DNA of 64,000 nt from the IMG/VR virus record IMGVR_UViG_3300005836_000015, one strand, 5' to 3'. Shown piece after piece: positions 6,420-41,695 of this stretch. The stretch's first letter is position 1. Each line of letters starts with the position of its first letter. Made by a program: the position numbers and the translations under genes. The stretch comes from a virus. The notes beneath the pieces were generated by a model. That model was not told the DNA's origin. It saw only the letters and a list, made by a program, of their open reading frames with translations, and ran no database searches.

Positions 6420-6797
6420 GTGAACAATCCTTTCAAGCTCGACTCGACGCCCCTCCCGACCGACTGGGATAACCTCCAGGACCTCTTCGCCGACATGAAG
6501 AAATTCGCGGAAGATAACCCGGGGCACACTATCCTCCCCGCTGACGACACTGGGCAGCACTACCAGCCGTGGAGGGTTCCTCGTTTGGGATGGACAGCAT
6601 TCCTCGACAACGCCGCAGACGAGCAGGCGAAGATGTTGACCATCAAGCTCGTCAACGTGAAGAACGTCATCGCATCGGGGCACGCCTTCTCGGACGCCCT
6701 TCGAGAGAGCCTGCGGACGCCACTCGGGAAGCAGAAGCTCCTCGAATCCGTGATCGGTCGTCCGCCTATTCCCACTGGCCCCGCAGCCACGACTTGA
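6420..6797 (+). CDS. hypothetical protein
   Basis: 125-aa ORF following GGAGAG RBS. Confidence 0.6.
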   Translation: MNNPFKLDSTPLPTDWDNLQDLFADMKKFAEDNPGHTILPADDTGQHYQPWRVPRLGWTAFLDNAADEQAKMLTIKLVNVKNVIASGHAFSDALRESLRTPLGKQKLLESVIGRPPIPTGPAATT

Positions 6798-7438
6798 GGC
6801 TCCAGGTCTTGTTGGTCCGGTGGTCGGTGACCCGATCATCCTGGGTACGGTAGGTCCTGATCTTGTCGCCCCTCATGCCGGTTCCGACCTGACCTCGACG
6901 AGCTGCATCTCGAGCCTCACGAGCTCTGCCTTCTTCGGCCTCGTTGAGTTTGGCGGCAAGGATCTGAAGGGCCACCGACCGGCTCTGGTGCTGCGAACGC
7001 ATGTCGACCCGGACCCTCAGCCCGGTCGGCTTGTGCGTGGCGACGACGCAGGAGTCGGTCTTGTTCCGATGTTGACCTCCGGGACCGCTCCCCCGAGTCG
7101 TCTGGATGTCCACGTCGGACTCGTTCAGACGGAAGCGGGTCGGAGCATCCGGATGGAGCACGGCAACCGTGACCGTCGAGGTCTGCATGCGACCCCGCTT
7201 CTCCGTGGGCGGGACGCGTTGAAAGCGATGCCCTCCGGCTTCGTCACGGAAGAGCCGCTTGGCGCCTTGGCCGGTGAACAGGACCGAGAGGAATCCCGGC
7301 CGTTCGTCTACGAGTTCCGAGTCAAAGACCCCTCCGCTCCGCAGCCTTCACAAAGGCCGAGCAGAGGTCCTGGACGAGGAGCTTTGCATCCTCGCCACCT
7401 TCCGCAGCACGGAATTCGATGACGACGGACTCGATCAT
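6766..7438 (-). CDS. class I peptide chain release factor-like protein (domains 2-4), +1 programmed frameshift
   Basis: Frame 0 (7438-7325) IEFRAAEGGEDAKLL; after +1 shift at CTT-TGA-C the frame is open to 6766 with GGHRFQRVPPTEKRGRMQTS, GSGPGGQHRNKTDS (GGQ) and IRTY; ATG overlaps the upstream stop (ATGA). Confidence 0.9.
7321..7335 (-). promoter_or_regulatory. prfB-type +1 frameshift cassette
   Basis: Minus strand GGAGG GGT CTT TGA C: internal SD 3 nt before CUU-UGA-C, as in bacterial prfB. Confidence 0.88.
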
Positions 7439-7758
7439 GCCCCCGAGCATAGCCGAGCCTTGGCCTTGTGGCCAAGTTTTTTGATCGCCCGCTCCCGTCG
7501 GATCGCATCGACCTGGCACATGGGGCCCTCGATGTAGGCGACGTCCCATGGCCTCCCGGTTCGGGTGAACTTCGCCCCGCCCGAGACCTCTCCGTTGTGC
7601 TTCCGGAGGCGCTCCTCGAGATCGACGGTCATCCCCGTGTAGAACTTGGGGAGAACGGGGCTCTTCAGGATGTAGACGAACCAGCGCACGTCTTCACTTG
7701 CAGAAGGCACAGGAAGTGTTCGCTTCCTGCCACTGGGACGAGCCCTCTTCGTAGCCAT
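7435..7758 (-). CDS. GIY-YIG nuclease family protein
   Basis: WFVYILKS...FYTGMTVDLEERLRKHN...GGAKFTR...E motifs. Confidence 0.9.
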   Translation of the reverse strand: MATKRARPSGRKRTLPVPSASEDVRWFVYILKSPVLPKFYTGMTVDLEERLRKHNGEVSGGAKFTRTGRPWDVAYIEGPMCQVDAIRRERAIKKLGHKAKARLCSGA

Positions 7759-16667: not shown

Positions 16668-16789
16668 GGGCATCCAACCGAGCAGTTCGTACACGCAAGT
16701 AGCTCAATGTAGAGCAACGGCCTTGAACGCCGTGGGTTGTGGAGTCAAATCCACCTCGCACAAATCCGCACTGCCACCTCGGATGTCCC
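16668..16789 (+). ncRNA. Y-RNA-like element enclosing tRNA-Ser(TGA)-like arms
   Basis: GGGCATCC/GGATGTCC terminal helix, CCGAGCAGTTCGTACACGCA, D arm, ACGGC-CT-TGA-AC-GCCGT, degenerate T arm. Confidence 0.7.
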
Positions 16790-16971: not shown

Positions 16972-17057
16972 GCGGACGTGGCGGAATGGCAGACGCACTA
17001 GCTTGAGGTGCTAGCGGGTGAAAATCCCGTGGAGGTTCGAGTCCTCTCGTCCGCACC
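16972..17057 (+). tRNA. tRNA-Leu(GAG)
   Basis: Class II cloverleaf, CTAGC-TT-GAG-GT-GCTAG. Confidence 0.93.
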
Positions 17058-18481: not shown

Positions 18482-18558
18482 GGAGACGTTTGCCATCTGG
18501 TGATGGTGGCTGGCTGTGAACCAGTCCTAGGCGGGTTCGATCCCCGTACGTCTCCCCA
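18482..18558 (+). tRNA. tRNA-His(GTG)
   Basis: GCTGG-CT-GTG-AA-CCAGT; 8-bp acceptor with G-1:C73. Confidence 0.88.
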
Positions 18559-19501: not shown

Positions 19502-19577
19502 TGCCCCTGGAGCCGAGATTCGCTTGGCGGGGCTCACAGCAGGACAGAGAAAGCGGGGTTGGCAACCCCACAAGACC

Positions 19578-20744
<1,167 letters not shown>

Positions 20745-20772: not shown

Positions 20773-20848
20773 GCCTCGTGAGTCGACTGGAGTCGACGCT
20801 TGATTGTCAATCAAGAGGAGATGGGTTCAATCCCCATACGGGGCGCCA
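20773..20848 (+). tRNA. tRNA-Asp(GTC)
   Basis: CTTGA-TT-GTC-AA-TCAAG, GCCA. Confidence 0.85.
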
Positions 20849-33030: not shown

Positions 33031-33380
33031 GGGCCTGATCGGCTTCGACGTGGGAAGGAAGGCAAAGTCTGCGTGCTGGCGGCTCCTGCTCCGCCCTATC
33101 AAGCGGGACGTATTAGCTGCGAACGACAACGCATCCGCTGCTCCCGCCCTCGCGGCGGCCTGAGTGGCTGTTCGGCGGGAAGATCGTCCTGGTACCCGCC
33201 GGGCATCATCACGAGGGCTGGATCCCAGGCGTGCTCAACGGCCGAAGGGTCGAGACTCACAGGTGGGCTAGGTCGAGGCCGAATCCTCGAACTCAGCCCG
33301 AGGGGATACTCGGGCTACGCACGTGAACGAAGACTTGCTGGATAGCTCGCGGACCTGGGTTCGATTCCCAGCAGGTCCAC
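33031..33380 (+). ncRNA. ssrA: tmRNA (tag ANDNASAAPALAAA)
   Basis: GGGCCTG...TTCGAC 5' end, G3:U acceptor with CAGGTCCA 3' end and T arm; resume GCG at 33119, tag ends TGA at 33163. Confidence 0.95.
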
Positions 33381-36741: not shown

Positions 36742-37032
36742 ATGTCTGGGGACATCCGCTTCGCCAACATCAGCATCGTCAGCATCTCGGATGATCTGAT
36801 CGCCCGGGTTGCTCGTCGGACAAGACGGTCCATCGATGAGGTTCGTGCCTACCTCAAGACGGACCAGCAGGATGACGAGCTCCTTCGGGCGTTCTTGTTC
36901 TTTGGGGTCGGACCCAGGAACAAGCGGTTCACCAGGACCGAAATCGAGGTGCTGTTGGCCGACGAGTCTGGGCGCGAGCCCCTCGGCTACAGGATCTTCA
37001 CAAATCGCAAGGACTTCGAGAGCAACAGGTAA
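36742..37032 (+). CDS. hypothetical protein
   Basis: 96 aa; CCGGTGTA at 36724. Confidence 0.55.
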   Translation: MSGDIRFANISIVSISDDLIARVARRTRRSIDEVRAYLKTDQQDDELLRAFLFFGVGPRNKRFTRTEIEVLLADESGREPLGYRIFTNRKDFESNR

Positions 37033-37036
37033 CGTC

Positions 37037-38443
37037 ATGTCCCTCAAGTACGCTGCGTCGAAGGTCGAAGAAGGTCACTACGTCCTGCCGAAGGTCGGGA
37101 CGATGAAGGTCGAGGCTCACGCCTTCCTCTCGGACGAGCTGTACGCCTCTTCCGAGGAGAACTTCTGGGATCAGCTCTCCAACGGGGCGAGTTACGAGGG
37201 CATCATCGGCGCCTATGCCATGCCCGATTGCCACGTCGGGTTCGGTGTCCCGGTCGGGGTCGTCCTGGTGACCGAAGACACGATCATCCAGGCGGGGAGC
37301 GGCTACGACATCTCCTGCGGGGTGATCTACATGAAGGTCCCGGGTCTGACGGCGACAGGAATCAAGAGCTGGTACAAGCGTGAGACCTGGGTCCGTGAGG
37401 TCGAGAAGCGGATCGCTACGGGAATGGGCTCGGAACGGCCGAGCCTCATGCCGAAGTTCAAGTCCGGGCAGGCCGACGAGATCCTTCGCCATGGGGCCAA
37501 GGCCCTCGGCGTTTCGGCCGACCTTTGCGAGCGCCAGTACATCCCGGTGCCCGAGGGCATGGATTTCAAGAAAATCGACAAGGCATACGACAAGGTGATC
37601 CCGCAGCTCGGCTCGGTCGGCGGGGGCAACCACTTCGTCGAGATGCAGGTCGACGAGAAGACCGGTGAGGTCTACGTCATGGTCCACTGCGGCAGCCGAG
37701 GCTACGGCTGGCAGACGGCGAACCACTTCTTCTTCGAAGGGGCGAAACTCCGGGGACTCCCGTCGAACCGCCGGGAAGACTCCTGGCTCCGGATCGACGA
37801 GCCTCTCGGAAAGGAGTACTGGGCCTACCACAACTCCGCTGCGAACTTCGCCGTCGCCAACCGCCACATCATCGTTCGCGGCATCCAAGAGGCCCTGGAA
37901 AAGGTTTTCAGCGTTCAGGGCGAGGTCTACTACGAGATCAGCCACAATCTCGTCCAGGAGGAAACGCTGGTCCTTCCAGATGGGACATCCAAGAAGGGCT
38001 TCGTCCACCGGAAGGGAGCGACGAGGGCCTTCCCGGCGGGGCATCCCGACCTCAAGGGGACCGTCTGGGAGAAGACCGGGCATCCGTGTCTCATCCCGGG
38101 GTCGATGTACCACGGGGCGGCCATCCTCTTCGCCGGAGAGAATGCCTACAAGTCCGCCTGCTCGGTCAACCACGGGTCGGGTCGGATCATGGCTCGGGGT
38201 GCCGCCAAGAAGAAGCTGGGCCACAAGCAGGCCGAGATCGACGGCGAGATGAAGGAGGTCCAGCGTGAGCTGGGCGGCGTTCGGGTCGATGGCATCGTGG
38301 GCAACCACAAGCACACGCCCCTCGACGAGTGCGCTCATGTCTACAAGGACCTGGACGAGGTGCTCGGTGTACTGGAGTCGACGGGCATTGCCCGGGTGGC
38401 CCATCGCCTCTGGCCCGTGGCCAACCTGAAGGGAACCGAATGA
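37037..38443 (+). CDS. rtcB: RNA ligase RtcB
   Basis: MPDCHVGFGVPVG, GYDISCG, GSVGGGNHFVE, HCGSRG, HRKGAT, IPGSM, HGSGR. Confidence 0.96.
   Translation: MSLKYAASKVEEGHYVLPKVGTMKVEAHAFLSDELYASSEENFWDQLSNGASYEGIIGAYAMPDCHVGFGVPVGVVLVTEDTIIQAGSGYDISCGVIYMKVPGLTATGIKSWYKRETWVREVEKRIATGMGSERPSLMPKFKSGQADEILRHGAKALGVSADLCERQYIPVPEGMDFKKIDKAYDKVIPQLGSVGGGNHFVEMQVDEKTGEVYVMVHCGSRGYGWQTANHFFFEGAKLRGLPSNRREDSWLRIDEPLGKEYWAYHNSAANFAVANRHIIVRGIQEALEKVFSVQGEVYYEISHNLVQEETLVLPDGTSKKGFVHRKGATRAFPAGHPDLKGTVWEKTGHPCLIPGSMYHGAAILFAGENAYKSACSVNHGSGRIMARGAAKKKLGHKQAEIDGEMKEVQRELGGVRVDGIVGNHKHTPLDECAHVYKDLDEVLGVLESTGIARVAHRLWPVANLKGTE

Positions 38444-39848: not shown

Positions 39849-41695
<1,847 letters not shown>

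Follow-up and report, generated by a model that had tools for sequence, protein, structure and literature searches.

The 64,000-nucleotide (nt) stretch of viral DNA analyzed here, IMG/VR record IMGVR_UViG_3300005836_000015 ("the window"), carries on its minus strand a gene for a short, putative class-I release factor, which we refer to as mini-RF (span 7438-6766). The gene is divided between two reading frames. The upstream open reading frame (ORF), termed ORF0 (7325 to 7438), runs for 38 codons (MIES...AERRGL) from an ATG at 7438-7436 to a CTT at 7327-7325. This CTT is the first codon of the heptamer CTT TGA C (7321 to 7327), which combines a presumptive slippery leucine codon, an in-frame TGA (7324-7322), and a C (7321) that provides a weak termination context. 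A Shine-Dalgarno (SD)-like GGAGG (7331 to 7335), the putative stimulator of a +1 shift, lies just upstream, separated from the CTT by the 3-nt spacer GGT (7330-7328). The second frame (6766 to 7323) starts with GAC at 7323-7321 and continues for 185 codons through RVPPTEKRGR and GPGGQ to a TAG stop (6768-6766). When CTTT is read as one step, the two frames join into a single 223-amino-acid product (P0003). The initial annotation of this DNA had described a 38-codon ORF, a +1 frame open for 185 codons, a joined product of about 223 residues, and a complete prfB-type cassette with GGAGG 3 nt ahead of CTT-TGA-C inside the gene. All of these were recovered at the positions it gave.

A plain ORF list splits the gene in two (7322 to 7549 and 6766 to 7188). 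The first start codon of the +1 frame is M84, the methionine of RGRMQTS, which lies downstream of the PxT motif. Thus, separate initiation in this frame cannot yield a complete decoding domain. We also considered readthrough of the UGA instead of a shift and rejected it, as the 0 frame beyond the TGA has no release-factor similarity and reaches another TGA about 25 codons on. This implies that decoding of the in-frame UGA would give a product that is not a release factor, and a suppressor-tRNA gate cannot explain genes of the frameshift type. Transcriptional slippage as the alternative to a ribosomal shift is disfavored because CTTT is not a slippage-prone run. Of the 15 genes identified in the window, mini-RF is the only one to end in TAG (6766-6768, minus strand), so an RF1-type product would terminate its own full-length mRNA.

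The joined product corresponds to RF1 without domain 1

Pfam comparison of P0003 returned the second half of the PCRF family (positions 101-194 of 194) and the RF-1 domain. Within this match, ORF0 covers PCRF positions 101-134, encoding the first strand of domain 2 and helix alpha-5 with the slippery CTT as its last codon. The +1 ORF encodes the remainder of domain 2 and domains 3 and 4, as judged from the PCRF and RF-1 matches and from an ungapped alignment with Thermus RF1. The NCBIfam models scored P0003 at 210 bits for RF1, 125 bits for RF2, and 86.4 bits for PrfH. All three scores fall under the equivalog cut-offs, which are 400 bits for RF1 and 166.65 bits for PrfH. The RF1 match spans model positions 105-330 of 347; at 210 versus 400 bits, P0003 lacks the full four-domain architecture of an RF1 equivalog. 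It does not resemble RF2 either, having PPT in place of the SPF tripeptide and scoring lower with the RF2 model than with the RF1 model. These results agree with the earlier assignment to an RF1-type factor with a PxT motif.

The best match of P0003 among solved structures was Thermus RF1 (E = 2e-45, residues 107-320), and the alignment is free of gaps through the frameshift junction (AERRGLDSELVDERP over AEEMGFETEVLDSHP). Alignments of P0003 to seven in-frame protein relatives are likewise ungapped at this point. An AlphaFold2 model of P0003 had a mean predicted local distance difference test score (pLDDT) of 81 and template modeling (TM) scores of 0.86-0.88 to ribosome-bound RF1. A fold search with this model returned PrfH only at rank 50. 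To account for the missing domain 1, we inspected the upstream neighbors. No PCRF match was found in these genes, which comprise a GIY-YIG nuclease gene and two ORFs without a Pfam family match, ruling out a domain 1 supplied by a neighboring gene. Taken together, these comparisons indicate that the predicted product is RF1 domains 2 to 4 without domain 1, i.e., an RF1-derived class-I release factor. The initial annotation had likened the absence of domain 1 to PrfH. The absence itself was borne out, but a closer kinship with PrfH was not, since the protein is an RF1 derivative that scores below the PrfH cut-off and has no RtcB gene next to it.

The frameshift cassette is conserved among viral relatives

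Two scans of IMG/VR viral contigs yielded 121 loci, from which 88 distinct genes were classified once duplicates had been removed. The survey of relatives took the best 80 loci per scan, and the proportions below describe this sample rather than the whole family. The 88 relatives come mostly from huge-phage contigs, and the ORF0 N terminus M-x-S/T-V-I-V-E-I-R-A-A-E-G-G is conserved in relatives. In 54 of the 88, the reading frame has to move by +1 at one shared codon, 31 codons past the Glu of E-I-R-A-A-E-G-G. The last 0-frame codon is CTT in all 54, and CTT accounts for only about 12% of leucine codons in the identified genes of the window. The stop that follows is mostly TGA (48 genes, against 5 with TAG and 1 with TAA), and the base after the stop is C in 38, G in 11, A in 5, and T in none. 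An SD-like element, mostly CGGAGG, precedes the site in 46 of the 54 shifted genes, and its distance to the CTT is 3 nt in 45 of those 46. By inspection rather than by formal count, no comparable SD-like element was seen in the contexts shown for members that are unshifted at this site.

Relatives with the cassette range from 41 to 84% in protein identity. The nearest of them (74-84% identity) keep CGGAGGGGT/CGGAGGCGT-CTT-TGA, and the neighboring codons vary. Of the 120 best matches in a large protein database, the majority covered only about 77-88% of the query, which is what results when gene callers see the downstream ORF only. Mini-RF genes are therefore split or truncated by gene callers, as most database entries show.

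A single extra base is by itself enough to split a gene, so errors in sequencing or assembly and a decaying pseudogene had to be weighed. We rejected these as exceedingly improbable. Both halves are conserved as protein, and the same extra base, within the same 7-nt motif and at the same codon, is found in 54 distinct genes from independent assemblies. In-frame homologues with no conserved CTTTGAC, the outcome that the initial annotation had named as pointing to an error, were not the pattern observed; the cassette is instead kept across the identity range given above. Its recurrence at one codon in 54 of 88 distinct homologues is far above chance. This pattern of conservation indicates that the +1 frameshift is programmed and not an error.

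Other stop-codon gates occur in the family

The relatives outside the frameshift group are of two kinds. About 25 of the 88 are in frame but contain an in-frame stop, nearly always TGA, and 7 are uninterrupted. Among the former, a clade of 12 (L085, L088, L093, L098-L100, L105, L112, L114, L115, L119, and L120) has GGC-TGA at index 30 after the E-I-R motif, approximately 100 nt into the gene. This index is a Trp position in 23 of 25 bacterial RF1 proteins, and the frameshift members place their CTT there. For the GGC-TGA clade, either TGA is read as Trp genome-wide, or the gene has its own UGA gate, at which readthrough by tRNA-Trp would restore the native residue. A coverage test on loci of about 2.4-6.7 kb, from relatives with an in-frame TGA or a TAG cassette, gave no clear signal of genetic code 4, these loci being short.

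Two other relatives have an in-frame TGA (L081 and L113), and one an in-frame TAG (L069), exactly at the position of the frameshift stop. A further clade, with E-I-R-P-G-E-G-G at its N terminus, has an in-frame GGC-TGA-C 10 codons further downstream. Within it, L128 (4001-4690) has CAC-CTT-TGA-C and a +1 shift where its clade-mates have the in-frame GGC-TGA-C. Stop-codon gates of differing designs thus seem to interconvert.

We placed the family and the 25 bacterial RF1 proteins in a maximum-likelihood tree, built by a quick search and rooted on bacterial RF1. The branch that separates the family from the bacterial proteins had 100% support in the Shimodaira-Hasegawa-like approximate likelihood ratio test (SH-aLRT). 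The earliest branches are four uninterrupted genes, and almost all of the gated ones fall in a single clade supported at 98%. Genes with a TAG cassette occupy five separate tips, each of them surrounded by TGA relatives. Outside this mini-RF1 family, we noted a phage release factor on an AT-rich 276-kb viral contig (L027) that has an SPF motif of the RF2 type and a longer N-terminal region.

Decoding residues are RF1-like with family-specific changes

Residues were counted in the 88 phage-family members and in the 25 bacterial RF1 proteins, using Thermus RF1 numbering. Most of the positions that define RF1 are shared. The residues G116 (88 family members), Q181 (86), P184 (84), and T194 (83) and the GGQ motif (88) are all present in 25 of 25 bacterial proteins. 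T186, likewise universal in the bacterial set, is T in 66 family members and N in 14. The remaining positions differ. E119 is Glu in all 25 bacterial proteins and Asp in 87 family members, while the middle residue of PxT (position 185) is A, E, K, or T in the bacterial proteins and P in 81 members of the family. Positions 188 and 189, which are T, S, or A followed by Q in bacterial RF1, are K or R in the family, and H193 (25 of 25) is either H (55) or Q (33).

In the window protein, the tip of helix alpha-5, G14-G15-E16-D17 (7388 to 7399, minus strand), aligns with G116-E119 of Thermus RF1, with Asp in place of E119. The PxT-type tripeptide is P76-P77-T78 (7204 to 7212, minus strand), Q73 stands at Q181, T86 at T194, and the catalytic motif is G120-G121-Q122 (7072 to 7080, minus strand). 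The protein thus carries PxT, Q181, T194, and GGQ as expected of an RF1. It has neither Glu119 nor His193, these being replaced by D17 and by Q85 (7183 to 7185, minus strand), respectively. In RF1, the first two bases of the stop codon are contacted by residues 116-119 and 186, with His193 stacking on the second base. Changes specific to the family at these contacts are therefore located where second-base discrimination occurs. Among the family members, we found no link of the tripeptide or of residue 193 with the identity of the gating stop.

Stop codon usage and release factors in the phage

The 15 identified genes of the window end in TGA (12), TAA (2), or TAG (1), making TGA the main real stop codon of this phage. 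Genome-wide recoding of TGA was rejected on the same count and because the standard code gives dense coding. The window encodes about 49 tRNAs (46 found by ARAGORN and three by Rfam only) in addition to a transfer-messenger RNA (tmRNA). Neither program found a stop-suppressor tRNA in the window. Three candidates were examined in this connection. The one at 18482-18555 (plus strand), labeled "tRNA-Sec" by Rfam, is actually a tRNA-His(GUG) missed by ARAGORN, and the one at 20773-20845 (plus strand) is a second copy of tRNA-Asp (GUC), also missed by ARAGORN. The third (16693-16762, plus strand) has the anticodon UGA (Ser) and is not a stop suppressor. This 70-nt, Rfam-only tRNA has the anticodon loop CTTGAAC and, unusually for a tRNA-Ser, lacks a long variable arm.

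To identify the likely reader of the cassette UGA, we turned to five related phage genomes of 369-459 kb, four of them estimated complete, that carry a frameshift-type gene. No further genes with release-factor domains were found in these five genomes. With no RF2 in the related phages, the cassette UGA would be read by the RF2 of the host, unless mini-RF itself reads UGA. Host RF2 most likely sets the rate of shifting.

Model for mini-RF expression and alternative explanations

We consider it somewhat probable that mini-RF is an RF1-derived factor without domain 1 and with RF1-like specificity, made only through a prfB-type +1 shift that responds to host RF2. In this model, a ribosome translating ORF0 would pause when its P site holds tRNA-Leu on CUU and its A site the poorly terminating UGA-C, and the GGAGG 3 nt upstream would pair with the anti-SD sequence of 16S rRNA. 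The tRNA-Leu(GAG) would then slip from CUU to UUU, and decoding would restart at GAC (Asp39). An isoacceptor that reads CUU is encoded in the window itself (16972 to 17057, plus strand) and is the candidate slipping tRNA. RF2 would compete with the shift by terminating ORF0 after 38 residues. UGA is read only by RF2. Since the phages of the family also lack an RF2 of their own, the output of mini-RF would rise as free host RF2 activity falls. With its RF1-type decoding residues and GGQ, mini-RF would most likely release at UAA and UAG without contacts to RF3 or the L11 stalk. We infer the ribosomal shift itself, its dependence on RF2, and the codon specificity of mini-RF from sequence. The cross-wired circuit that had been proposed for this gene, in which impaired UGA termination in the host brings on a factor predicted not to read UGA, is consistent with TGA being a true stop and with the lack of RF2 in the five related genomes, and it is kept here in conditional form.

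Several observations weigh against this model. With about 80% of its genes ending in TGA, the phage would benefit little from additional termination at UAA and UAG, a poor fit with pure RF1 specificity. The five TAG cassettes and one TAA cassette occur with the same decoding motifs, so RF2 is not the sensor in every lineage. The departures at decoding positions (E119D in nearly all members, PPT, K or R at 188-189, and H193Q in the window copy) suggest that the specificity may differ from that of RF1. Finally, we found no cultured phage with a frameshift-type gene.

A different explanation is classic autoregulation, in which a broadened or changed specificity includes UGA. When abundant, the factor would terminate its own ORF0 as RF2 does on prfB, making the supply of UGA termination self-limiting. 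The gate is TGA in 48 of the 54 frameshift members and in nearly all members with an in-frame stop, and with 12 of 15 phage genes ending in TGA, a factor that reads UGA would be the more useful one. The decoding changes peculiar to the family (E119D in 87 of 88, PPT, K/R at 188-189, and H193Q in 33 of 88) favor autoregulation as well. Nevertheless, the first residue of the tripeptide is Pro and not Ser, T186, Q181, and T194 are of the RF1 type, and the sequence as a whole is far nearer RF1 than RF2. A TGA at the conserved Trp would also be self-defeating if the phages concerned translate TGA as Trp and the product is an efficient reader of UGA. On balance, we regard autoregulation as unlikely, though it is the leading rival. 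It has a broader form, in which the changes in the decoding pocket let mini-RF read UGA, UAA, and UAG alike. Mini-RF would then be a natural, self-limiting, omnipotent factor of the bacterial type, switched on in phages and a few myxobacteria when termination at the gating stop falters, and any stop could serve as the gate. The occurrence of all three stop codons in the cassettes with no matching change in motif is what an omnipotent factor predicts; we judge this broader form unlikely.

Two further explanations do without a stop-codon sensor or without stop-codon reading altogether. The cassette could be a fixed attenuator or timer that holds a factor damaging at high levels to a small, steady amount, or that ties its yield to general translation conditions. 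Bacillus subtilis does lose fitness when release factors are overexpressed (PMC12421855), and the cassette stop varies within the family, being TGA, TAG, or TAA. However, a steady low output could be had for free from a weak ribosome-binding site or promoter, whereas here the prfB cassette has been preserved in full, down to the weak +4 base and the precise SD spacing. Moreover, other designs of stop gate recur at or near the site, such as the in-frame TGA and the L128 shift 10 codons downstream. The kept cassette and the recurring gates together point to selection on the stop codon itself, and a fixed attenuator thus appears improbable. Alternatively, mini-RF might be a rescue-type hydrolase for stalled or damaged ribosomes, similar to PrfH or ArfB, that acts alongside the phage tmRNA and RtcB and is not a stop-codon terminator. 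Domain 1 is absent from PrfH and ArfB as well, and the window encodes tmRNA, RtcB, and EF-Tu together with its many tRNA genes. Yet the entire codon-recognition domain is conserved (PxT, Q181, T194, and the alpha-5 tip), the PrfH model gave 86 bits against a cut-off of 167, and RtcB (36809-38443, plus strand) lies 29 kb away on the other strand and is present in only one of the five related phage genomes. We therefore consider a rescue hydrolase highly unlikely, and on the same scores and positions we rejected a module of the PrfH-RtcB type. Among these explanations, we favor the RF1-like factor gated by host RF2.

Comparison with known release-factor systems

To our knowledge, the CUU-UGA-C +1 frameshift is the textbook case of self-regulation by a translation factor and is regarded as unique to RF2. 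The mini-RF cassette shares with that of prfB the CUU slippery codon, the in-frame UGA, C as the commonest next base, and an SD-like element 3 nt upstream (PMC12421855, PMC3711429), and both are release-factor genes gated by a stop codon. The two sites differ in position. The mini-RF site is in domain 2, at about Thermus residue 140, where RF1 has a conserved Trp codon, whereas the prfB site is in domain 1 at about codon 26. Because these positions are not homologous, the mini-RF cassette is most simply of independent origin. TAG serves as the cassette stop in 5 of 54 mini-RF genes but in none of 8,164 prfB motifs (PMC12421855). In addition, prfB encodes the reader of its own gate, while the mini-RF gate is most likely read by a factor other than the encoded one. 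Thus, in the mini-RF family, a prfB-type signal appears to have arisen at a nonhomologous site in an RF1-type gene, mostly with a gating stop that RF1 does not read.

Earlier surveys give no precedent for such a gene. A 2025 survey of >12,000 bacterial genomes reported no programmed frameshift in prfA, in addition to the lack of TAG among prfB motifs mentioned above (PMC12421855). The GeneTack survey listed RF2 only (PMC3711429), and a 2016 review of frameshifting stated that an RF1 counterpart was unknown (PMC5009743). Our literature searches found no description of a frameshifted or truncated phage RF1.

Compared with bacterial RF1 (prfA), mini-RF is about 40-45% identical over domains 2-4 and has the same PxT, Q181, T194, and GGQ elements and a matching fold. 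It differs in lacking domain 1 and in having Asp119, Pro as the central PxT residue, basic side chains at 188-189, and, in the window copy, Gln193. PrfH is likewise without domain 1, is of similar size, and keeps GGQ. Unlike PrfH, mini-RF retains the RF1 decoding elements, in addition to the differences in model score and RtcB linkage noted above. Such a natural RF1 without domain 1 could be used to ask what domain 1 and RF3 are needed for.

Release factors are also known from other viruses. Recoded phages carry RF1 (the TGA-recoded Jade phages) or RF2 (the TAG-recoded Lak and Agate phages) (10.1101/2021.08.26.457843). Like mini-RF, these are phage-borne class-I release factors; their proposed role is to bias termination during infection (10.1101/2021.08.26.457843). 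They are standard-code genes for which no frameshift has been described, whereas the window phage is not recoded and its gene needs the +1 shift. Huge phages have been reported to carry RF1 and RF2 genes, with no frameshift noted (PMC7162821). The release-factor gene of a giant amoeba virus, the one such case cited in PMC5009743, needs both readthrough and a frameshift. According to that citing review, the amoeba virus gene resembles mini-RF in that expression of a viral termination factor depends on stop-codon recoding; it belongs to an unrelated, eukaryotic-type system with different signals. If the proposed circuit is true, phages would monitor host RF2 activity and respond by making a phage-encoded factor, which would be a novel form of viral control of termination. 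Natural variants for asking what the gating stop senses are also available within the family, whose cassettes use TGA, TAG, or TAA and which includes copies gated by an in-frame stop or not gated at all.

Copies in bacterial genomes

Among bacterial contigs representing one genome per species, 76 of the 80 best matches were ordinary, full-length, uninterrupted RF1. One gated copy (L123) is found in a metagenome-assembled genome of the Sandaracinaceae (Myxococcota), with CGGAGGGAG-CTT-TGA-C at the family's usual codon. Its neighbors are genes for a tRNA-dihydrouridine synthase (Dus), a LysR regulator, and a DsbA-like protein, and the context looks chromosomal. The same 8.7-Mb genome (G001), in which the short gene is an extra paralogue, also encodes a normal RF1 (PAT), an RF2 (SPF), and an ArfB-sized protein. 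Its prfB has the canonical GGGGAGG-TCT-CTT-TGA-C at codon 26. Thus, this bacterium has two release-factor genes, mini-RF and prfB, both with SD-N3-CTT-TGA-C. In the myxobacterial order of this genome, the short gated gene was found in 3 of 81 sampled genomes (G001 with L123/L211, G075 with L209, and G054 with L210), and the cassette is the same in all of them.

Neighboring genes and gene content of the window

The gene immediately upstream of mini-RF encodes the GIY-YIG nuclease (7435 to 7758, minus strand), and its TGA overlaps the mini-RF ATG (ATGA). At the corresponding position in the closest relative (L202:3543-3830), no gene was called, and a 95-amino-acid gene on the opposite strand lies upstream of mini-RF instead. 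Judged from the gene calls in this relative, the nuclease gene, translationally coupled to mini-RF, may be a mobile insertion.

The window has a G+C content of 62%. In addition to RtcB, its identified genes include EF-Tu (19524-20744), GroEL (39867-41501), RecA, an NAD-dependent ligase, a ribonucleotide reductase, an ExoV-like helicase, a DNA methyltransferase, and a sigma-like protein. This predicted gene content fits a huge phage. The tmRNA is located at 33031-33380 (plus strand) and encodes the tag peptide ANDNASAAPALAAA.

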